Source: Chthonomonadales bacterium
GTDB taxonomy: Bacteria > Armatimonadota > Chthonomonadetes > Chthonomonadales > CAJBBX01
NCBI GenBank assembly: GCA_037443035.1
Contig: JBBIPC010000018.1
Coordinates: forward strand, 72,060 to 83,800
Reading direction: 5' to 3'
Length of the DNA: 11,741 nt
Below, in pieces: positions 1 through 11,741 of this stretch; positions within the stretch are counted from its first letter, which is position 1; the number at the start of each line of letters is the position of its first letter. Under the pieces are notes generated by a model that saw nothing but the letters and a program-made list of their open reading frames with translations, ran no database searches and was not told where the DNA came from. Both the position numbers and the translations under genes were made by a program.

Positions 1-266
1 TCGGCTGCCCCTGCGTCTGCCTGTCCTGCGTCTTCTTGGGCCGCCGCTCCGGCCGCGGCTGCGGTTTCGATAGGCATCGCCTTGGTCTCCACCGTCTCGA
101 CCGTCACGAGGTGCTTGACGGCGTTGACCATTCCGCGCACCTGGGGATTGTCGGGATGCACTACCGTCTTGTGCATGCGGCCCAGGCCAAGTGCACGTAT
201 GGTCCTCTTCTGGCGCTCGGCAAAGCCAATGGGGCTCCTCCGGAGCGTCACTCTAAGCTTCGCCAT
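1..266 (-). CDS. rpmD: 50S ribosomal protein L30 (uL30), 3'-partial, with Ala-rich C-terminal extension
   Basis: Translated by hand (not in the ORF track): ATG at 266, [57 protein letters not shown]..., with typical L30 motifs. GGAGG SD at 273-277. Follows rpsE with a 14-nt overlap. No stop before the window edge. Confidence 0.96.
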
Positions 267-810
267 GTTCCGCCTCCACGACAGGTGCCGTCTCCTCGCT
301 TTCTGCAAGCCAGGGCACCATCTGCCGAACACTCTTCCCGCGCATTCGCGCCACCTCTTCGGGTTGCTTGAGCATCCTGAGTGCGCGCATGGTGGCCCAG
401 GCGATATTGATCGCATTGGAGGACCCTAGGGACTTGCCCAGTACATCGTTGATCCCAGCGAGCTCCAGTATGGTACGCACCGAGCTCCCGGCAACTATAC
501 CGGTACCGGGCGAAGCGGGTTTCAGGAGCACTTCTGCAGCGCCGTGATGCGCCAGCACCTCATGCGGGATGGTTGTCCCCGCAATGGGCACTTCGATCAT
601 GTTTTTCTTTGCGTCTTCCACCCCTTTGCGTATGGCATCGGGAATGGCACGCGCCTTTCCCAGGCCGGCGCCGACCCTTCCATTGCGGTCGCCGACAACC
701 ACGAGCACATTCCAGCTCATTGTCCGGCCGCCCTTGTGGGTCTTCTGGACCTTGTTGGTGCGCACCACGCGTTCTTCAAGGTTCAGCGTATCTGCAGCGA
801 TCCTCGCCAT
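253..810 (-). CDS. rpsE: 30S ribosomal protein S5 (uS5)
   Basis: KGGR, VVVGD, PASPGTG and KSLGS motifs. Start moved from 843 to the ATG at 810 (MARIAAD), 1 nt after the rplR stop, with GGAG at 818-821. Confidence 0.97.
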
Positions 811-811
811 G

Positions 812-1165
812 TCAGAACTCCAATCCGCCTTCGCGCGCGGCATCGGCCAAGGATTTCACGCGGCCATGGTACTTGTAGCCACCCCTGTCGAACACCACGC
901 GGTTGATGCCCTTCTCGATGGCACGAGCTGCGATCAGCGCGCCCACCTGTCTCGCTCCTTCGATATTGCCACCTGAGGTGGAACGGAGCGATGGATCGAG
1001 TGACGACGCTGCTGCCAGCGTCACACCCGCATCGTCGTCGATGAGCTGCGCGTAGATGTGCCGGATACTACGGAACACGTTCAACCGCGGCCGCTCTGCC
1101 GTGCCGCTTACTTTCGCTCTGACGCGCCTATGACGCTTCAGACGCAGTGTCTGTTTCCTATTCAT
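812..1165 (-). CDS. rplR: 50S ribosomal protein L18 (uL18)
   Basis: [23 protein letters not shown] and AREGGLEF motifs; operon position. Confidence 0.98.
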
Positions 1166-1289
1166 GCTTCAGCCTGTCCTCGTCAAGCAGATTGCCGACC
1201 TGCCTGCCTGTGGGTAATACTCGACGCGAAAGGTAAGTATACCTTCGACCGCAACACCGCTATGGGGCATCCGACAGACCATGGGCGCC

Positions 1290-1853
1290 TTACTTGCCAC
1301 CGCCCTTGCTGGTCTTGCCAGCCTTGCGCCTGACCGCCTCGCCGCGATAGCGGATCCCCTTGCCCTTGTAAGGCTCTGGTGGACGAAGGCCACGGATCTG
1401 GGCCGCGATCGTCCCGACCAGCTCCTTGTCTATACCGCGAATGACAACAAACGGAAGACGTGTTTGCTGTTCCTGACCGGCCTCGAACTCGATGCCCGGC
1501 GGTGGGGCGATTTCGATTCCGTGCGACAGTCCCACAGTAAGAGCAAGGTTCTTGCCAGCCATACTCGCTCTGTAGCCGGTGCCATACACCTCCAGGATGC
1601 GCGAGTAACCGTTCGTCACCCCTTCGATCATGTTTGCGATGAGGGTGCGAGTAAGCCCATGTGCCGCCCGAGCAGCTTTCGAGTCGTCACGCCTCTCGAC
1701 GAGCAGGGCATCGCCCTCCTGCCGCAGTTCGATGAGTGGCGACATGGTGCGCGTGAGGATGCCCTTCGGTCCTTTCACGGTTACCTTGCCGACCTCATGG
1801 GTTATCTCCACCGCTTTGGGTACGGGAATGGGACGCTTTCCTATACGGGACAT
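1290..1853 (-). CDS. rplF: 50S ribosomal protein L6 (uL6)
   Basis: MSRIGKRPI, KGPKG and PEPYKGKGIRY motifs. TAAGGAG SD overlaps the rpsH stop. Confidence 0.98.
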   Translation of the reverse strand: MSRIGKRPIPVPKAVEITHEVGKVTVKGPKGILTRTMSPLIELRQEGDALLVERRDDSKAARAAHGLTRTLIANMIEGVTNGYSRILEVYGTGYRASMAGKNLALTVGLSHGIEIAPPPGIEFEAGQEQQTRLPFVVIRGIDKELVGTIAAQIRGLRPPEPYKGKGIRYRGEAVRRKAGKTSKGGGK

Positions 1854-1863
1854 GGGTTTCTCC

Positions 1864-2265
1864 TTACCAGACGTAACAGAGGACTTCGCCGCCTATGCCC
1901 TTGGCCCGTGCGTCTTTGTCCGTCATGACGCCCTTCGACGTCGTCAGGATCGCGATACCCAATCCACGAAGGACGCGCGGCAGCTTGTCCTTTCCTGTGT
2001 AGACGCGGAGGCCAGGCTTGCTCACGCGCTTTAGGTCTGTAATCGCGCGCTCCCGCTGGGGACCATACCGGAGGTAGATCTTGATACGGTCCTGCTTGGG
2101 ATCTCGGGTGATATCGAACCCCTTGATGAACCCTTCCCGGTGGAGGATCTTCACAATCTCCAGCTTGAGCCTACTACTGGCGACCTCGGTCGACTCGTGG
2201 TAGGCCATGTTGGCGTTCCTGATGCGCGTCAGCAGGTCGGCGACGGGATCGGTCGTGTATGCCAT
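1864..2265 (-). CDS. rpsH: 30S ribosomal protein S8 (uS8)
   Basis: [21 protein letters not shown] and GGEVLCYVW motifs. Confidence 0.98.
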
Positions 2266-2277
2266 GCCGATTCTCCC

Positions 2278-2463
2278 CTACCAACTCGACTTCGTGACGC
2301 CGGGAAGCAGTCCCCTCAGGGCCATTTCCCGGATGCAGATGCGGCACAAACCAAACTTACGGTGCACCCCTCGCGCTCGGCCACAAACGGAACAGCGCGT
2401 ATAGGCACGCACGCCGAACTTCGGCTTTCGCAGCGCTTTAGCGATGAGACACTTCTTTGCCAT
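2278..2463 (-). CDS. rpsN: 30S ribosomal protein S14, zinc-binding short type Z (uS14, 61 aa)
   Basis: CSVC...CRIC zinc ribbon, PGVTKSSW end, 61-aa length of the C+ form; GGGAGGGA SD at 2471-2478. Confidence 0.97.
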
Positions 2464-2483
2464 GGTGTATTCCCTCCCGTCGG

Positions 2484-2504
2484 ATCCCGGCCATCAGCCG
2501 GAAT
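2484..2504 (-). promoter_or_regulatory. Intergenic 8-bp stem-loop between the EF-G paralogue and rpsN (no U-tract)
   Basis: mRNA reads AUUCCGGC-UGAUG-GCCGGGAU (7 Watson-Crick pairs and 1 G-U pair), ending just upstream of the rpsN SD. Function is inferred only. Confidence 0.4.
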
Positions 2505-2517
2505 GGTAACGTGGCGG

Positions 2518-4593
2518 CTATGATTGCTCCTTGCTCTTCTGGTATTCCGCGATGATCTGCTGGGCGATGTGAGCCGGTACCTCTTCATAATGGGACGGCT
2601 CGATCTCGAAAACGCCGCGGCCACGGCTGATGGAGCGGAGGTCAATGGCGTACCTTAGCATCTCCGCCTGTGGCACGTTCGCTTTGACCTTCACACGTCC
2701 CCCGGGCACCGGCTCCGTGCCGAGGATCCTGCCCCGCTTACCCGAAAGATCGCCCATGACGTCGCCCAACATGCTTTCAGGAACAGTCACAGTCACGGTG
2801 ACAATGGGCTCGAGGATTACGGGGTTCGCCTTCGGCGCAACGTTGTTGAACGCAATGATCCCTGCCATCTTGAAGGCTTGTTCCGAGGAGTCCACTTCAT
2901 GGTACGAGCCGTCATAGCAGGTGCATCGAATGTCCACCATCGGGTTCCCAGACAGGACCCCGTTGGCCATGGCCTCCACAACCCCCTTCTCCACCGCGGG
3001 TATGTACTGCCTGGGGATCGCTCCTCCAACGATGGCATCCACGAACTCGAAGCCTGCCCCCCGAGGCAACGGCTCCAATCGGATGTGGCAATCGCCATAC
3101 TGTCCTCGTCCGCCGGTCTGCTTCTTATGCCGTCCTTGTCCTTCGGCCTTGCTGAGGATGGTCTCGCGATACGGGACCTTGAGGGGCACGAGATCGACAT
3201 TGGCGCCGAACTTGCGCAGCTTCTCCACGACGATGCTCAGATGGGTCTCTCCCATGCCGCTAAGCACCGTCTGCCCCGTCTCCTGGTCACGACGGTAAGT
3301 GAAGCTGGGGTCCTCAGCAGCCACACGCTGAAGGGCAGGGCCGAGCTTGTCCTCGTCCACCTTTGTCTTTGGCGTCACTGCCACTTCGTAGATCGGTCGC
3401 GCGAACTCCACCGGAGGCAACACGATGGGCTTGGCCGCATCGCAGAGGGTATCGCCTGTCCGAGTAGCCCCGAGCTTGGCCACAGCGCCGATATCGCCCG
3501 CACCCAGTTCGGAAACAGCCTCTTGGTTCTTGCCGCGCACAACGTAGAGCTGTCCGATACGCTCATCCTTGCCGCTAACGGAGTTCAGCACATGGCTGTC
3601 CGAACGAACGACACCGGAAAAAACCCGGAAGTAGGTGAGTTGACCGACGAACGGGTCCGCCAGTGTCTTGAAGACCAGCGCGCAGAAGGGGTCGTCGTCG
3701 GAGGGATTACGCACTGTCTCGGAGCCGTCTCGCGTCGTCCCTCGAACCGGCCCGGCTTCGAGCGGACTCGGACAGGCCGCAACGATGAAGTTCATCAGCG
3801 CCGCCGCTCCCATGTTTCTCGCAGCAGCACCGCACAGCACGGGTACTACCTTTCCCGCCACCACGCCGGCTCGAAGCCCCCGGATGATCTCCTCGTTGGA
3901 GAGGTCCTCGGTCTCGAAGTACTTCTCGATGAGTTCGTCATCACCCTCGGCCGCAGATTCCACTAACATACTGCGGAAACGAGCTACCGTGTCTGCCATT
4001 TCCTCGGGTATAGGCACCTCGTTGAACTCGCGACCGACGCCCTCGTATGCCTTCATCTGTATGAGGTCCACGATTCCCCGGAAGCGCTCTGCCTGACCGA
4101 TGGGGATCTGCACAGGCGCGATGGCGCTCCCATGCACCTCGCGCAGCTTCTCCACGACGGACATGTAGTCGGCGTTCTCCCGGTCCATACGCGAGACGAA
4201 GACCACCCGTGGTCGCCCTGCCTCCACGGCGTGTTGCCATGCGATCTCGAAGCCGACTTCGATGTCCCCCTGAGCTGGCGTGACAAGGACCGCTGTTTCC
4301 ACCACCCGCAGAGCGATCCGAACTTCGCCCTCGAAGTCAAGGTAGCCCGGAACGTCCACGACGTTGAGCTTGGAGTTGCCCCACTCGCAGGGCGCCAAAC
4401 CGATGTTGATGCTGATATTGCGGCGTATCTCTTCGGGGTCGAAGTCCGTGGTGGCAGTTCCATCATCGGTACGCCCCATACGATCGATGGCGCCAGCCGT
4501 GAGCAGCATAGCCTCCGCCAGCGTTGTCTTGCCGCTGCCTTGATGTCCGAACAGACCAACGTTGCGGATTGTCTGAGCGGGGTGTTTCCTCAT
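2518..4593 (-). CDS. fusA2: Elongation factor G paralogue (EF-G2 / EFG II-type translational GTPase), 691 aa
   Basis: Full EF-G architecture: G1 GHQGSGKTT, switch I TDFDPEEIRRNISI, G3 DVPGYLDF, G4 SRMD, domain III EDPSF and SGMGETHL, domain IV VPYRETI, HKKQTGGRGQY and DGSYHEVDSSEQAF, domain V LEPI. The G-motifs differ from housekeeping EF-G (AHIDAGKTT, RGITI, DTPGHVDF, NKMD). Confidence 0.93.
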   Translation of the reverse strand: MRKHPAQTIRNVGLFGHQGSGKTTLAEAMLLTAGAIDRMGRTDDGTATTDFDPEEIRRNISINIGLAPCEWGNSKLNVVDVPGYLDFEGEVRIALRVVETAVLVTPAQGDIEVGFEIAWQHAVEAGRPRVVFVSRMDRENADYMSVVEKLREVHGSAIAPVQIPIGQAERFRGIVDLIQMKAYEGVGREFNEVPIPEEMADTVARFRSMLVESAAEGDDELIEKYFETEDLSNEEIIRGLRAGVVAGKVVPVLCGAAARNMGAAALMNFIVAACPSPLEAGPVRGTTRDGSETVRNPSDDDPFCALVFKTLADPFVGQLTYFRVFSGVVRSDSHVLNSVSGKDERIGQLYVVRGKNQEAVSELGAGDIGAVAKLGATRTGDTLCDAAKPIVLPPVEFARPIYEVAVTPKTKVDEDKLGPALQRVAAEDPSFTYRRDQETGQTVLSGMGETHLSIVVEKLRKFGANVDLVPLKVPYRETILSKAEGQGRHKKQTGGRGQYGDCHIRLEPLPRGAGFEFVDAIVGGAIPRQYIPAVEKGVVEAMANGVLSGNPMVDIRCTCYDGSYHEVDSSEQAFKMAGIIAFNNVAPKANPVILEPIVTVTVTVPESMLGDVMGDLSGKRGRILGTEPVPGGRVKVKANVPQAEMLRYAIDLRSISRGRGVFEIEPSHYEEVPAHIAQQIIAEYQKSKEQS

Positions 4594-4636
4594 GAGCTAA
4601 CCTGTCCTTGTTCGCTTCGAGACTTCGTCGTGCACG

Positions 4637-5188
4637 CTACTTCTGACGGAACGGCATGCCGAGGCCACGGAGCAGAGCCCTGGCCTCCTCATCCGTTCGT
4701 GCCGATGTGCAGATGATGATATCCATGCCGCGCACGCGGTCAATCTTGTCGTACTCGATTTCGGGAAACAGCAGCTGCTCGCGGACGCCTGTGGCGAAGT
4801 TGCCCCTGCCATCGAACGAGTTGGGGCTGATGCCCTGGAAGTCACGAACTCGCGGCAGTGCCGTCGAGATGAAGCGATCGAGAAACTCGTACATCCGCTC
4901 GCCACGCAGCGTAACCTTGCATCCGATCCGCGCCCCTGCACGTATCTTGAAGTTCGATATGGACTTCTTTGCACGAGTGACGCAGGGTCGCTGACCGGCG
5001 ATCAGGCTCATGTCCCGCATGGCGTTGTCGAGCAGCTTCGGATCTCCGCCGGTTTGGCCGGCCTGCCCAACGCCCATGTTCAAGACGATCTTCTGCAGCC
5101 GCGGTATCTGCATGACGTTCTTGTAGCCGAACTCCGCCATGAGAGCCGGGGCGACTTTCGTCTTATACAGTTCCTTCAAACGAGCCAT
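4637..5188 (-). CDS. rplE: 50S ribosomal protein L5 (uL5)
   Basis: [30 protein letters not shown] and RGMDI motifs. Confidence 0.98.
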
Positions 5189-5213
5189 ATTCGGTAATCC
5201 TTCGATGTTCGCC

Positions 5214-5615
5214 CTAGTCGAGCGACTTGCCGCAGTCGGGATGCTTGCAGACCCGGTACTTGCGATGCGCAGGCTTGCCCTCGCCTGGATGATAGGCGTA
5301 GCCTACACGGGTCGGACGCTGGCACTGCGGACAGACAATCATTACCTTGGGTGCGTACAGCGGCGCTGGCTTCTCGATCCGGCCGCCCTCCTGAAGCTGC
5401 TGGACGCCCGAGCGTGTGGTCCGGCCACTCTGCCTAGCCTTCTGGTGCTTTATAATGATGTTCACACCTTCGACGAGGACCTTGTTCACCTTTGGATAGG
5501 CATGCAGCACCCGTCCTCGTTTTCCTTTGTCCTTGCCGGCAATGACCTGAACCTCGTCGCCACGTTTGATACGCAGCTTCGCGGCGTACTCGCCCGGCTT
5601 ATACTTGGTCGGCAT
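5214..5615 (-). CDS. rplX: 50S ribosomal protein L24 (uL24), with four Cys in CPQC and CKHPDC
   Basis: KOW motif [19 protein letters not shown] and VEGVN. Start overlaps the rplN stop (TGATG). Confidence 0.97.
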
Positions 5616-5983
5616 CAGAGCACCTCCGGAGCAAGCGAGATGATCTTCATGAAGTTGCGGTCGCGCAGCTCTCGCGCCACCGGGCCAAAGACGCGGGTGC
5701 CACGCGGCTCGCCGCTGTTGTCCAGCACGACACAGGCGTTGTCATCGAACCGAAGCACGGAGCCATCAGGCCGCCGCACAGGCTGTCGGGTCCGCACCAC
5801 AACGCACTTCACGATGTCGCTCTTCTTGACTTGCTGGCCCGGCGTGGCGGACTTGACGACCCCCACGATGATGTCGCCCACCCGCGCCGCCTTAGCGTTG
5901 GAGCCCTTCAGGACGCGCACGCACATGATCTCACGAGCGCCACTGTTGTCGGCTGCACGCAGCCGTGTGTATGGTCGTACCAT
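5615..5983 (-). CDS. rplN: 50S ribosomal protein L14 (uL14)
   Basis: [23 protein letters not shown] and SLAPEVL motifs; 122 aa. Confidence 0.98.
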
Positions 5984-5997
5984 GTCGTCCTCTCAGA

Positions 5998-6300
5998 TCA
6001 CTTGGCTTTCTCGACGATGCGCACGACACGCCAGCGCTTCTCCTTCGAGATGGGCCTTGTCTCCATAATCTCGACACGATCGCCAACGCTGCATTGGTTG
6101 CCCGGGTCGTGCGCCTTGAAACGAGTCGTGCGCCGAACGATCTTGCTGTAGAGCGGGTGGCGCATACGGGTCTCGATGGCGACCACCACCGTGGAGACCA
6201 TGCGGTCGCTGATGACCGTGCCGATGCGCGTCTTTCGGCGCCCGCGAGCCTTCTCCGGCTGGTTCACGCCTCCGCTCATCTCGTCTGTCGTCTCCGCCAT
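5998..6300 (-). CDS. rpsQ: 30S ribosomal protein S17 (uS17)
   Basis: [17 protein letters not shown] and [11 protein letters not shown] motifs; GGAGG at 6311-6315. Confidence 0.97.
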
Positions 6301-6303
6301 GTC

Positions 6304-6528
6304 TTACTCGCCTCCGGCCGCGCGTGCACGTTCGCGCATGATGGTCAGTATTCGAGCAATCTCCTTCTTGCTCTCCGGGATTGCCGCCGTATTCTCGAGC
6401 TGTCGCGTCACGTTCTCGCGCCTCAATGTGAAGAGCCGCTCGCGCTGCCGCCGCAGTTCCTCGGCCAGTTCTCGATCGGTCAGATTCCTGAGCCTCTCAA
6501 GCCTTGTCCGTCTCTTCTCCTCGGCCAT
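6304..6528 (-). CDS. rpmC: 50S ribosomal protein L29 (uL29)
   Basis: [18 protein letters not shown] and KKEIARILT helical pattern; AGGAGG SD at 6535-6540; position between rplP and rpsQ. Confidence 0.95.
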
Positions 6529-6994
6529 CGGGCGCCTCCTCTCCTGTATTCTCCGAAGCTACGTCGTCTGATGCCACGTGTTCTTCCGTGGTTCGCTTGA
6601 CGAACTTCACGTCAATCGGCAGCTTGTGGGATGCCAACCGCATAGCCTCGCGTGCCGTCTCTTCTGGAACGCCGGCCATCTCGAACAGTATCCGGCCCGG
6701 CTTCACTACGGCTACCCAGCCCTCGGGTGCCCCCTTGCCGGACCCCATGCGGGTCTCAGCGGGCTTCTTGGTATAGGGCTTATCGGGGAATATGCGGATC
6801 CAGACCTTGCCCACGCGCCGTACGTACCGGGTCATGGCAATACGCGCAGCCTCGATTTGGTTGGCCGTCAGCCAGCACGGTTCCAGGGCTTGGAGTCCGT
6901 ACTCGCCGAAGTGGACGGTGTTGCCGGACGTAGCCTTGCCGCGCATGCTGCCACGATGTTGTTTCCGGTACTTGACGCGCTTTGGCATCAACAT
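6497..6994 (-). CDS. rplP: 50S ribosomal protein L16 (uL16)
   Basis: [28 protein letters not shown] and KLP motifs. Start overlaps the rpsC stop (TAATG). Confidence 0.98.
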
Positions 6995-7770
6995 TATTCG
7001 GTTCCTCCTGTCGCACCGGTACCCCGACGACGACCGCGAGCGCTGCTACCCCGGCCGCGTCCGCCTCCATCGCCGCGGGTGGTTCTGTCCGCCCGCAGAG
7101 CCTCTCTCTTGGGCACAATTTCCGACTCGGTCAACCGTTCGCTGCCCGGCAACACGTCGCCCTTGTAAATCCATACCTTGATGCCGATATTGCCGTAGGT
7201 CGTCGCCCCCTCGGCGAAGCCGTAATCTATGTCGGCGCGAAGGGTGTGCAGGGGTATCTTCCCCTCACGCATGTGCTCTCTGCGAGCCATCTCTGCGCCT
7301 CCCAGGCGGCCGGCGCATGATACGCGAATGCCCTTCACTCCAAGCCGAATGGCGCGGACAATCGCCTGTCGCATGGCACGTTTGTAGGCCACTCGCTTGC
7401 TGATCTGCTGCGCGATCGAATCGGCGACAAGTTGGGCGTCAATGTCGGGATAGCGGATCTCTCGGATATCCACATGGACGCTCCGTTTGATGAGCTTCTC
7501 GAGTCCAGTGCGTACGTCATCGATCCCCTTTCCGCCCTTGCCGATGAGCATGCCTGGCCGCGCGGTGTGGATGATGACAGACATGGAGCCGCCTTTGCGC
7601 TCTATCTCGACGCGAGACACACCGGCTTGCGAGAGATTCTTGCGGATCCACTGCCGGACCATGTGGTCCTCGCGCACGCCATCCGCGTAGCCCTTGCCAC
7701 GATACCAGCGGCTGTCCCACAGGCGAATGACGCCTACGCGAAAGCCGATCGGATGTACTTTCTGACCCAA
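6994..7770 (-). CDS. rpsC: 30S ribosomal protein S3 (uS3), TTG start
   Basis: [13 protein letters not shown] motif [19 protein letters not shown] and [19 protein letters not shown] at 7778-7783 supports the TTG start. Confidence 0.98.
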
Positions 7771-7784
7771 AGCGTCTCTCCTTC

Positions 7785-8435
7785 TTACCCGACCTGCTCA
7801 GTCTCGCCCTCGGCGGGCTCTGTGGCTTCTGTGCTGTTCGCTGCTGGTTGTTCTGCAGCAGTTACTGTTTCCGTGCCCACAGCCTCGTCAGTGGCCTCCG
7901 TCACGACCGCAGCCGGCGCTTGTTCAACGGTTGCTGCGGGTGCGACTTCCGCCGGGGCCTGTGTAGCCGTGGCTACCCGTCCCGCCGCCCGAGCACGACG
8001 GGCTGCAGTGACCCGCCGAGGCTTCGGCGGCTTTGGCGCAGTTTCCTCGAGCACCACGCTGATGTGGCACATTCGCTTGAGGATGCGATAGGCCCGTCCC
8101 TGGGCCCGAGGCTGGATTCGCTTGATGCGTGGCCCCTCATCCACCTGACCTCGAACGAGCTTCAGATTATCGGTATTGAGCGGCGGCAGTGCTCTTCCTT
8201 GGTCGTCGTATGGCCTACCATTCTCGGCGTTCGCAACGGCTGATCTCACCACCTTCTCGATAGCCCGCGCCGCGAAGTTCGGCACGAACCTCAGTGTGGC
8301 CAGCGCATCGCTCACGTACTTCCCCCGAACCGCATCCAGCACCAATCGGGCTTTACGCGGTGGGACCCGCACGAACCGGGCCGTGGCCCTCACCTGATTG
8401 TCCTTCAGTTGTCGTGGCTTACTCGATTTGCCCAT
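7785..8435 (-). CDS. rplV: 50S ribosomal protein L22 (uL22), with an 85-aa C-terminal extension
   Basis: PRKARLV, SAVANAEN, VDEGP and PRAQGRA motifs; AAGGA at 8444-8448. Confidence 0.97.
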   Translation of the reverse strand: MGKSSKPRQLKDNQVRATARFVRVPPRKARLVLDAVRGKYVSDALATLRFVPNFAARAIEKVVRSAVANAENGRPYDDQGRALPPLNTDNLKLVRGQVDEGPRIKRIQPRAQGRAYRILKRMCHISVVLEETAPKPPKPRRVTAARRARAAGRVATATQAPAEVAPAATVEQAPAAVVTEATDEAVGTETVTAAEQPAANSTEATEPAEGETEQVG

Positions 8436-8450
8436 AGCATGTATCCTTGG

Positions 8451-8738
8451 CTATCGCACCTGGGTCCGGCGTTCGACTTGCTGCCCAGCATGGCCCCGGA
8501 ACAGGCGGGTCACAGCGAACTCACCGAGCTTGTGGCCGACCATGTTCTCTGTGACGAACACAGGTACGTGCTTGCGTCCGTCGTAGACCAAGAACGTGTG
8601 CCCGATGAACTCGGGGAAGATGGTGGACCTACGCGACCAGGTCTTGATCGCCTTCTTCTCTCCGGTCTTGTTCATCTGCTCTACCTTCGCGAGCAGTTTG
8701 GGATCGGCATACGGTCCTTTCTTCAGCGAACGACCCAT
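8451..8738 (-). CDS. rpsS: 30S ribosomal protein S19 (uS19)
   Basis: [17 protein letters not shown] and MVGHKLGEF motifs. Start moved from 9026 to the ATG at 8738, with AGGAG at 8746-8750. Confidence 0.98.
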
Positions 8739-8752
8739 GACTGTGCTCCTGC

Positions 8753-9586
8753 CTACTTCGCACCGCGTCTGCGGACGATGTACTTGTTCGTGGCCTTGTT
8801 GCGCCGCGTCTTGTAGCCTAGCGCCGGCTTGCCGGCCGGTGTCGCCGGTCCTTTCTTGCGACCAACCGGCGATTTGCCTTCGCCACCACCATGCGGATGA
8901 TCGCGCGGGGTCATGGCAACCCCACGCACGTGGGGCCGCTTCCCTGCCCAGCGTGTCTTGCCAGCTTTTCCGGCCGACTCGTTCTCGTGCTCCACATTGC
9001 CGACCTGACCTACAGTGGCGACGCAATCAATGAGCACCCGACGGACTTCCGTGGATGGTAGCCGGACTTGGGCGTACTTACCTTCTTTCGCCATGAGCTG
9101 GGCGAAGGCACCAGCGCTTCTGACCATCTGGCCTCCCCGGCCAGGAGTCAGCTCCACGTTGTGGATCACCGTACCCACAGGTATGTTGCGTAGCGGCAGG
9201 CAATTGCCCGGCTTGATATCGGCATCCGGTCCTGCAAGGATCGTGTCACCGACCTTCAGTCCTACAGGCGCCAGGATATAGCGTTTCTCGCCATCTGCGT
9301 AGTGGATCAGAGCTATCCTCGCAGAGCGATTGGGATCGTACTCGATGGTGGCAACCCTACCCGGTACGCCTACCTTGTCCCGCTTGAAGTCTATCCTGCG
9401 GTACTGCCGCTTATTGCCGCCGCCCCGGAACCGCGCCGTAATCTTCCCCTGATTGTTGCGTCCGCCGCTGTGCTTGAGAGGCTCGAGCAAGGAACGCTCG
9501 GGCTCTGTGGCCGTTATCTCCTCGAACGTGGAGACCGAGCGAAAGCGCCGACTCGGTGTCGTGGGCTTATAGGATCGGAGTGGCAT
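8753..9586 (-). CDS. rplB: 50S ribosomal protein L2 (uL2)
   Basis: [20 protein letters not shown] and DHPHGGGEG motifs. Start moved from 9814 to the ATG at 9586 ([10 protein letters not shown]), 1 nt after the rplW stop; 277 aa. Confidence 0.98.
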
Positions 9587-9587
9587 A

Positions 9588-9878
9588 TCAAAGTCCCTCG
9601 AACATCGTGATGGTCTGGCCTGGCTTGAGCGTGACGATCGCCTTCTTCCAGTCGGACGTGCGACCTTCCGGCATGCGGCCGACTCGCCGCTTCTTGCCGC
9701 GCACCTTGATGGTGTTGACCTTGAGCACTTCCACCTTGAAGATCTTCTCGACAGCCTGCGCGATCTCGATCTTGTTGGCATCCATCGCCACGCGGAAGGT
9801 GTACTTTCCCGCATGGCTCAGGTCCATGCTCTTCTCGGTCAGAAGCGGGCGCTCGATGATGAGATAGGGATCCTTCAT
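9588..9878 (-). CDS. rplW: 50S ribosomal protein L23 (uL23)
   Basis: PLLTEKS, ANKIEI, VNT and WKKAIVTL motifs; ATGA overlap with rplD. Confidence 0.98.
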
Positions 9879-10591
9879 TTGCCCAGAACCTCTTCGATCT
9901 TCGGCACAGCGTCTTGCGCCAGGACGATCCGGTGTGCTCGTACCACATCACGCACGGAAAAGTTGGGTGCATACCGTAGTGTCACGTTCGGGATGTTGCG
10001 GCACGAGCGTAGCAGCACCATGTCGTAATCCGGAACGATGATCAGGACGTCGCACAGGACACTCTTGGTGCCGGTAATCTGAACGACTTGGCCTGCGTTC
10101 TCGCCATTCTCCGCACGCTCCCAGTGCTTGGTCTTCTTTTCCCGCGACAGGGGAAGCGCGCTCAGCATGGAAGTGATATCTTTGGTGCGTATTCTCTCCA
10201 AAGCGATGCGGTCGACGCCGATGACTTCGCCATCGCGCACTTTGGCCGACAGGGCTGCTCGCAGTGCGCCGCGCCGCATTTTCTTCGGTAGGGCCACACT
10301 GTAGTCACGCGGGTGCGGCCCGAACACCACGCCTCCATGCGTCCAATGAGGCGCCCTGGTGCTGCCCTGCCGTGCCCGGCCGGTGCCTTTCTGGCGCCAA
10401 GGCTTGCGCCCGCCACCGCGTACGTCCCCTCGCGTCTTCGTGGCAGCTGTGCCCTGCCGCTCGTTCGCTGCATTCGCTACGACTGCCTGATGGATCAGCG
10501 CCGGGTTGGGCTCGACACCGAAGACGGATTCTGGAAGCGGCAGCGTGCCGACCTGCTCGCCCTGCATAGTGTAGAGTGGTATTTCTGGCAT
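9875..10591 (-). CDS. rplD: 50S ribosomal protein L4 (uL4), with an internal insertion of about 30 aa
   Basis: [23 protein letters not shown] and GGVVFGP motifs; AGGAG SD overlaps the rplC stop. Confidence 0.98.
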
Positions 10592-10603
10592 ACCTGTCGC
10601 CTC

Positions 10604-11245
10604 CTAGATCCGCGTAATCCGCACCAGCCCACCATTGGCGCCGGGCACTGGTCCTTTGACCAGCAGGACATTCTTCTCAGGCAGTATCTGCACGACACGC
10701 AGTCCGCGTACTGTGACGGTCCGCGCACCCATATGCCCGGGCTTGCGCGTTCCTTTGAACGTCCTCGCGGCGTCCGTCGCCCCACTCGACTGCGGTTTGC
10801 GATGCACCATGGAGCCATGCGTCTTGTCACCGCCGTGGAAGTGATGCCGCTTCACTGCTCCGGCGAAGCCCTTACCCTTGGAAACGCCGGTCACCTTGAC
10901 AATATCGCCGACCTCGAACACCTCAGCCACGGTGATCTGCTGGCCGACTCGGTACTCCGAGATGTCCTCGGTCCGCACTTCCTGTAGCGTCTTGCGCGGC
11001 GGCACGTTCGGGTGCTTGGGCTGCTGAAGTCCGCCCCGAAAATGCCCCAACATCGGTTTGTTCACATGCTTGGGCCGGATCTCACCGAAACCGACCTGGA
11101 CGGCGGTATACCCATCCGTCTCCACACTCTTGAGCTGCGTGACAATGCAGGGACCTGCCTCTATCACGGAGACCGGCGTCACGGATCCATCTTCGTTGAA
11201 GATCTGGGTCATGCCGATCTTCTTGCCCAGTATCGTGTCTATCAC
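10604..11245 (-). CDS. rplC: 50S ribosomal protein L3 (uL3), GTG start
   Basis: GKKIGMTQIF, DGYTAVQ, SKGKGFAG, PGHMG and KGPVPG motifs; AAGGAG SD at 11254-11259. Confidence 0.98.
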   Translation of the reverse strand: MIDTILGKKIGMTQIFNEDGSVTPVSVIEAGPCIVTQLKSVETDGYTAVQVGFGEIRPKHVNKPMLGHFRGGLQQPKHPNVPPRKTLQEVRTEDISEYRVGQQITVAEVFEVGDIVKVTGVSKGKGFAGAVKRHHFHGGDKTHGSMVHRKPQSSGATDAARTFKGTRKPGHMGARTVTVRGLRVVQILPEKNVLLVKGPVPGANGGLVRITRI

Positions 11246-11297
11246 CTCTGAAACTCCTTGTCCTGCAGTAACCGACAGAGCGGGTTGCGTATCTCTC

Positions 11298-11615
11298 CTA
11301 GAGCTTCATGTCGATGTCGACCCCGCTTGGGAGGTCGAGTCGCATGAGCGCGTCTATGGTCTTGGCGCCAGGCTCCAGAATGTCAATCAATCGTTTGTGC
11401 GTCCGCATCTCGAAGTGCTCCATGGACTCCTTGTCGATGGTCGTGCCACGGTTGACGCACACAATCCTCTTCTCGGTCGGGAGAAGCACCGGTCCGCTGA
11501 TGCGCGCACCCGTGCGCCGCGCCGTGTCCACGATCATCTCCACTGAGTGATCGAGAAGCCGGTGGTCGAACGCCCTCAGGCGAATACGCACCTTGTTCCG
11601 TTGTGCTGCTGCCAT
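11298..11615 (-). CDS. rpsJ: 30S ribosomal protein S10 (uS10/NusE)
   Basis: [32 protein letters not shown] and LPSGVDI motifs; AGGAG SD at 11622-11626. Confidence 0.98.
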
Positions 11616-11633
11616 CTCGTTCTCCTGATTACA

Positions 11634-11661
11634 TCGGGGGCCCAGTGGTGCAGCCCCCCGA
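11634..11661 (-). promoter_or_regulatory. GC-rich stem-loop between tuf and rpsJ (no U-tract)
   Basis: mRNA reads UCGGGGGGC-UGCACCACUGG-GCCCCCGA (8 bp with one bulged G), between the tuf stop and the rpsJ SD. Confidence 0.5.
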
Positions 11662-11667
11662 CAACCC

Positions 11668-11741
11668 CTACTCGATTATCTTCGTCACGACGCCTGCGCC
11701 GACGGTATGTCCGCCTTCGCGTACAGCGAAGCGGAGACCTT
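11668..11741 (-). CDS. tuf: Elongation factor Tu, C-terminal 23 aa (5'-partial)
   Basis: Translated by hand: [27 protein letters not shown] (TAG at 11668-11670), the hallmark EF-Tu C-terminus. Confidence 0.96.

Follow-up and report, generated by a model that had tools for sequence, protein, structure and literature searches.

An EFG II (EF-G2) gene within the S10-spc ribosomal protein gene cluster of Armatimonadota

The question raised by this locus is what a second elongation factor G gene is doing in the middle of a cluster of ribosomal protein genes. The window, by which we mean the whole stretch of 11,741 nucleotides that was analysed, is the end of a contig (C18) of a 3.76 Mb genome in 61 contigs. 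It carries an S10-spc cluster (253..11615, minus strand) in which all the genes are co-directional with gaps of no more than 124 nt. This cluster reads rpsJ-rplC-rplD-rplW-rplB-rpsS-rplV-rpsC-rplP-rpmC and then rpsQ-rplN-rplX-rplE-[efg2]-rpsN-rpsH-rplF-rplR-rpsE; beyond the profile-matched genes, part of these names are what we take the genes to be from their translations. The bracketed gene, efg2 (2518..4593, minus strand), encodes an EFG II (EF-G2) protein with five EF-G domains (914 bits with NF009381), and its reading frame runs from 4593 to 2518 over 691 aa with no internal stop. Profile matches identify rplE (uL5; 4637..5188, minus) as its upstream neighbour and the zinc-type rpsN/rpsZ (uS14; 2278..2463, minus) as its downstream one. 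A previous sequence-only reading of this DNA had described an intact 691-aa EF-G-family gene between rplE and rpsN with spacers of 43 and 54 nt, and its coordinates, domains and neighbours are all confirmed here. The 43-nt spacer on the rplE side (4594..4636, minus) contains an AAGGA ribosome-binding site at 4605-4609. The 54-nt spacer on the rpsN side (2464..2517, minus) contains a GC hairpin at about 2487-2501 that lacks a T run and, past it, a GGGAGG ribosome-binding site (2472-2478, minus). The predicted strength of both sites equals that of the neighbours' own. Elsewhere in the window, the 216-aa product of rplV (uL22; 7785-8435, minus) has an Ala/Thr/Glu-rich tail of about 85 aa past its Pfam domain (17-130), and rpsC and rpmD have low-complexity C-terminal tails too.

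An arrangement of this kind could be an assembly chimera, which the sequence-only reading had itself named as one way in which its observation might fail, or a recent mobile insertion, and an assembly in 61 contigs gives some room for such an error. However, both junctions are bridged in contigs of another strain from run X1. One contig covers 1800-3695 and with it the efg2-rpsN junction (30 differences), and a second covers 3671-5648 and with it the rplE-efg2 junction (37 differences); the strain is about 98% identical, and each junction is bridged separately rather than by one contig across both. The run may be related to the source sample, yet it differs at these letters. The identical gene order also recurs in dozens of genomes, in several of them on a single contig, and because of this synteny and the bridging contigs we consider a chimera or a mobile insertion refuted, with a negligible chance of being right. 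The sequence-only reading had further seen neither a terminator nor a target-site duplication, and a composition like that of the neighbours, and what was found here agrees with all three. Neither spacer has a terminator-like site, no direct repeat pairs the two spacers among the 20 largest of 33 repeat families, and the GC content across efg2 (0.59-0.62) is similar to that of the flanks. There were also no Rfam matches for a regulatory RNA within the window at E up to 1. The gene is under purifying selection: of the 35 differences listed inside efg2, 30 leave the amino acid unchanged, whereas synonymous changes make up 24% of all those possible; 36 further differences lie beyond those listed.

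The closest relatives of the locus belong to Chthonomonadales in the phylum Armatimonadota, and the junction between rplE and rpsN, which had been proposed for a synteny check, is occupied in the same way there. Among 27 relatives' EFG II loci, 22 have both rplE and rpsN, 4 have one flank and 1 is too short. Both genes flank EFG II in 31 of 35 close relatives' loci, with two more distant Armatimonadota loci in addition; none of six tested spc genes lies within 4 kb of EFG II in 42 other loci, mostly from Nitrospirota (the 27-locus set overlaps the sets of 35 and 42). We then counted positions across the phylum in 160 genomes, hand-picked from about 300 to cover families and enriched for single-EF-G genomes, of which 159 have rplE. 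EFG II lies within the S10-spc cluster in 110/159 genomes, at either of two sites: site A after rplE (51/159, 49 with rpsN behind) and site B before rplN (59/159, 58 with rpsQ ahead, that is rpsQ|rplN). In-cluster copies occur in 40 of 44 families (f1-f3 being counted from the 27-locus set) and are absent from the cluster in f4, f6, f11 and f14. To look for site B beyond the phylum, metagenomes were scanned for an EF-G-to-rplN junction pattern, which addresses site B only and would catch about 13 of the 58 surveyed site-B loci. The scan found 29 loci, and all 20 full-length EF-Gs from them nest with Armatimonadota families. The arrangement is real, ancient and widespread in the phylum. The sequence-only reading was right about the rplE|rpsN site and missed the second site and the repeated losses.

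At the family level, the branching of the EF-G2 tree agrees with that of the r-protein tree, which fits vertical descent. One phylum origin of the in-cluster copies is not rejected (p-AU 0.31, 26 rows); this value is compatible with a single origin and does not thereby prove it, and two separate insertions into the cluster are possible. The deep EF-G2 branches are poorly resolved, with some outside proteins mixed among site-B copies, and the trees are unrooted, so that they do not fix whether site A or site B is ancestral. A convergent second arrival at rplE|rpsN was considered for one family (f18), which has site A but falls among the site-B families when the r-protein tree is built with FastTree. 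We dropped this claim because AU tests allow f18 to form one clade with the other site-A families (p 0.57 for EF-G2 and p 0.51 for the r-proteins) and one move is enough. The data fit vertical inheritance with one move between the sites across the rplN-rplX-rplE block. Between them, the sites divide the phylum into two halves and might be used as a rare genomic character.

The gene has also been lost. In 22/159 genomes rplE is directly followed by rpsN with no EF-G, and in 27/159 the cluster is split directly after rplE. Profile searches of 36 genomes found 12, each in at most 7 contigs, in which a His-type EF-G is the only full-length match. Since these near-complete genomes have no copy, efg2 is dispensable and accessory, and its repeated losses argue against an essential job. 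Four families keep EFG II elsewhere or have no copy. The 18 out-of-cluster copies (from f4, f11, f14 and f29) are not close to any r-protein gene tested; those fetched are surrounded by unrelated genes, bar two controls. The split genomes (L111, L113-L115, L140-L155 and others) include f11, f14, G227 and G169; in the last of these, efg2 heads rpsN-rpsH-rplF. Several of the split loci read by eye have a hairpin and a T run behind rplE. In two close relatives lacking EFG II, other ORFs occupy rplE|rpsN (351 and 265 aa in L110 of G023; 204 aa in L112 of G028). In L286 (G075; 1557-3437) a 2.5-kb reverse-strand insert separates rplE from efg2, with rpsN not behind efg2, and an ORF in this insert resembles a UmuC-type polymerase by its motif. 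The rplE|rpsN junction looks like a repeated breakpoint.

Judged by its residues, the efg2 product is a member of the known EFG II subfamily. All 13 EFG II positions that Margus, Remm and Tenson 2011 (PMC3150367) give in their Tables 1 and 2 agree with it; we mapped these positions by hand through an alignment. The type I positions (Gly16, Leu25, Ser61, Thr291, Gly333 and Lys/Arg352) correspond to G16, L25, S61, T310, G354 and K373 of the window protein and are the six that separate it from the same genome's fusA, where they are A, T, T, L, A and G. The type II positions (D216, V250, L264, K471, K472, E513 and G603) correspond to D218, V252, L266, K490, K491, E535 and G625 and discriminate little because the genome's own fusA shares 6 of 7. 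Gly16 belongs to the G1/P-loop GHQGSGKTT (4522..4548, minus; AHIDAGKTT in EFG I), which is followed by Leu25. The G2 motif RNISI (4408..4422, minus) has Ser61 for the Thr of RGITI, and a G2 lacking RGITI with Ser at position 4 is the EFG II definition. In the G3/switch II motif DVPGY (4342..4356, minus), Tyr84 replaces the catalytic His. G1 and DxPG are kept, G5 is GAA, and G4 is the variant SRMD (4183..4194, minus), where most relatives have NKxD and most site-A relatives are NKMD-like. NKxE instead of NKxD is seen in 11/18 out-of-cluster and 20/79 site-A copies. Domain IV loop I, HKKQTGG (3109..3129, minus), has the EFG II Lys-Lys pair. The tree agrees with this assignment: as the proposed EF-G phylogeny was to decide, a long branch sets the efg2 protein apart from the three EFG I rows, and this separation holds with 149 outside representatives in a tree that has no named EFG II reference. 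The catalytic His is found in 0/79 site-A and 0/58 site-B copies, with Tyr in 73/79 and 46/58, and only 9/150 representatives have it, so loss of the His is a general EFG II trait. Gly or Leu stands at this position in 10/58 site-B copies. Domain IV is the best-conserved domain of the in-cluster copies (its pairwise identity averages 0.65 among site-A and 0.59 among site-B copies, while the G domain averages 0.54 and 0.45), and the length from its loop I to loop II is 73-75 as in EF-G1, with no insertion.

Several other assignments were rejected. Canonical EF-G (EFG I) shares with the window protein five domains, 44% identity in the case of the genome's own fusA, and passage of the TIGR00484 cut-off; however, efg2 lacks AHIDAGKT, RGITI and DTPGH with its catalytic His, and lies outside the str operon (rpsL-rpsG-fusA-tuf). 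There is no switch I insertion (KDG) relative to T. thermophilus EF-G, which sets aside spdEFG1. Bacterial spdEFG2 keeps the catalytic His, and efg2 has Tyr84 instead. Bacteroides EF-G2 is characterised by a domain IV insert, which it needs; in the window protein nothing is added between loops I and II of domain IV, and it scores 584 bits with NF058620 against a cut-off of 1000. A Tet ribosomal protection protein is rejected by NF012153 (278.7 against 775 bits). One representative in the comparison (P0066) has 1040 aa, with the EF-G at residues 349-1038 and about 340 extra N-terminal residues.

The best solved matches of the G domain are 1wdt, from T. thermophilus EF-G-2 (1wdt/2dy1; E 1.3e-29), and, second, 9k0z, from M. 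smegmatis EF-G2 (9k0z/9k10). Both have DxPGY, thus Tyr for His, and both also deviate in G4 (TKLD). The T. thermophilus protein has 665 aa against 691 in the window; its PDB entries carry that organism's label in Margus 2011 (PMC3150367). As far as the covered portion of that paper goes, EFG II shares with efg2 a relaxed G2 with Ser, all 13 listed type I and II positions, divergent domains I-III with a conserved domain IV, phylum-wise vertical descent and coexistence with a str-operon EFG I, whereas the window copy differs in its conserved S10-spc place and in a G4 of SRMD rather than NKxD. The same portion ties conserved gene context to EFG I only.

The canonical fusA, which the sequence-only reading proposed to look for upstream of tuf, is on contig C22, where tuf begins behind rpsL-rpsG-fusA and is cut off by the contig edge. 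Its product has 697 aa, is 44% identical to that of efg2 and has the EFG I marks of RGITI, catalytic His and str operon. At the end of C18 the tail of tuf stops 53 nt from rpsJ (the spacer, 11616-11668, holds a GC-rich inverted repeat with no T run). The two contigs probably join through tuf, although a second pair of tuf ends exists (C12 and C17). The suggestion that one superoperon may carry two EF-G genes is supported by 14 of 16 long stretches from other genomes, each of which unites rpsL-rpsG-fusA, the S10 genes and efg2 in a single co-directional cluster. In one locus (L354 of G130) fusA is directly followed by rpsJ with no tuf match between. Many canonical EF-Gs of f3, f6, f11, f14 and f29 (L322-L347) seem longer between G2 and G3, and these extra residues are absent from the window genome's fusA.

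On the evidence of the spacers, ribosome-binding sites and deep conservation, co-transcription of efg2 with the r-proteins is plausible, and the in-cluster place in most families suggests that its product is likely made together with new ribosomes. Codon usage across 1719 ORFs puts efg2 at the 47th percentile, fusA at 89.5 and the r-protein mean at 77. The genome bias is very weak, too weak for codon adaptation to serve as an expression proxy, and efg2 is average. A promoter of its own was also considered, and the candidate site is not above chance. A promoter-like TTGACC-16-TATCAT (4716..4743, minus) lies inside the 3' part of rplE, about 120 nt upstream of efg2. The consensus found this one site against 2.6 expected by chance, and such a site is present at the end of rplE in 11/24 close loci and in 17/49 genomes where efg2 does not follow (12/27 split, 5/22 with none), so its frequency tracks lineage and not the presence of efg2.

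What the protein does can be approached through the few relatives that have been studied. In the part of a mycobacterial preprint covered here (bioRxiv 10.64898/2026.05.25.727771), H88Y nearly abolishes the GTPase of M. smegmatis EF-G1, and M. smegmatis EF-G2, with Tyr, has minimal GTPase, does not recycle, is stress-specific and sits on non-ratcheted ribosomes in a regulatory role; T. thermophilus EF-G2 also has Tyr, yet is reported there as GTPase-active and translocating. The motif at the catalytic position therefore does not fix activity. Bacteroides EF-G2 is reported to enable GTP-independent translation, and carbon limitation is reported to induce it 238-fold by way of a regulator of its own (PMC10294740, in part). 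Like efg2, the B. thetaiotaomicron protein (fusA2, BT2167) is an accessory paralogue beside a canonical EF-G and is the model for GTP-independent translocation, but its induction by carbon limitation differs from the placement of efg2 among growth genes, as does the stress-specific M. smegmatis EF-G2. Translocation by EFG II is described as much slower than by EF-G in the portion of PMC4342817 covered.

We favour, at a probability of about 0.5, the reading in which the efg2 product is a standing, slow back-up translocase, sparing of GTP or poor in its hydrolysis, that is encoded in the cluster and supplied in step with ribosomes, over a frozen position, an assembly or holding factor and a recycling specialist. 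The gene would have been inserted once in an early ancestor of the phylum, and one swap across the rplN-rplX-rplE block would have given two sites. Read-through transcripts, translated from the ribosome-binding site of efg2 itself, would make supply follow ribosome synthesis. The protein would attach to the ribosome by its conserved domains IV and V while hydrolysing little GTP, and would move tRNA-mRNA either slowly or on those ribosomes that are short of EF-G1 or GTP. The sequences themselves establish the intact gene, the subfamily residues, the conserved position, purifying selection and the presence of a canonical fusA. The absence of the catalytic His, the well-conserved domain IV, the translocation reported for studied EFG II proteins and the agreement of the EF-G2 and r-protein trees speak for this reading; the missing domain IV insertion, average codon usage, dispensability, out-of-cluster copies among unrelated genes, a motif that does not fix activity and the poorly resolved deep tree go against it.

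The position could instead be a frozen accident, in which an accessory EFG II landed once, its removal risks breaking an essential operon, and the real control is post-transcriptional or through an internal promoter. One origin and one move explain all in-cluster copies, exit is often paired with damage (the 27/159 clusters split after rplE), motifs are unchanged in the out-of-cluster copies, and both the average codon usage and the promoter-like site, with its recurrence in close loci, can be read this way. However, clean removal is possible, as the 22/159 genomes demonstrate, yet an in-cluster copy persists in 40/44 families. The single move inferred led back into the cluster, and the promoter-like site occurs just as often in genomes without efg2 behind rplE. 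We think a frozen accident rather unlikely.

A ribosome-binding assembly or quality-control factor, made with uL5 and uS14 and binding immature or idle subunits to hold or proofread the factor-binding site, would account for two sites among r-protein genes and away from tuf, and for the loss of the His in every in-cluster copy examined. M. smegmatis EF-G2, which is reported in the covered part of its source to bind 50S and non-ratcheted 70S with neither GTPase nor recycling, would be a precedent. That the product is not a translocase is nevertheless unlikely in our view, given strongly conserved domain IV loops I and II, which translocation needs, translocation by two of the three characterised EFG II proteins in the source portions covered, and complete loss in several lineages. 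The sequence-only reading had drawn from the operon position and a growth-coupled need a constitutive job such as recycling, assembly or alternative translocation, and a dedicated recycling EF-G acting with RRF, as in Borrelia or mitochondria, would also agree with the full-length C-terminal helix. Factors specialised in recycling, however, retain the catalytic His and depend on GTPase activity (mtEF-G2; bioRxiv 10.64898/2026.05.25.727771, in part), and the genome has a normal EFG I. This job is disfavoured and very improbable because efg2 is an EFG II with His changed to Tyr, and the mycobacterial EF-G2, which carries this substitution too, is incapable of recycling.

Neither the protein family nor the odd motifs it has are new; the placement alone is, and it is apparently undescribed. 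The sequence-only reading had allowed for the arrangement proving both common and already described for the phylum; common it is, in 40/44 families, and a description in print was not found in the full-text literature among the matches listed, supplements aside. The term spc is absent from Margus 2011 (PMC3150367), and in the portions covered PMC4342817 makes no mention of Armatimonadetes, PMC4072686 contains no discussion of the gene order and PMC12172202 says nothing of operons. EFG II is widespread, its role is called unknown in family surveys (PMC4342817, in part), and those of its members that have been studied are linked to starvation or stress. To be placed within the r-protein cluster across a phylum points to a role during growth. 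Natural comparisons for studying it are offered by copies at either in-cluster site, by copies that have moved elsewhere and by relatives that have lost the gene altogether. More tentatively, a His-less EF-G may have been a built-in part of Armatimonadota ribosome synthesis since the base of the phylum, made in step with the r-proteins and at work in ordinary growth, either as an assembly factor or as a translocase that spares GTP, so that a whole phylum would run two translocases from one superoperon. If true, EFG II could no longer be seen as a spare that is induced by stress.
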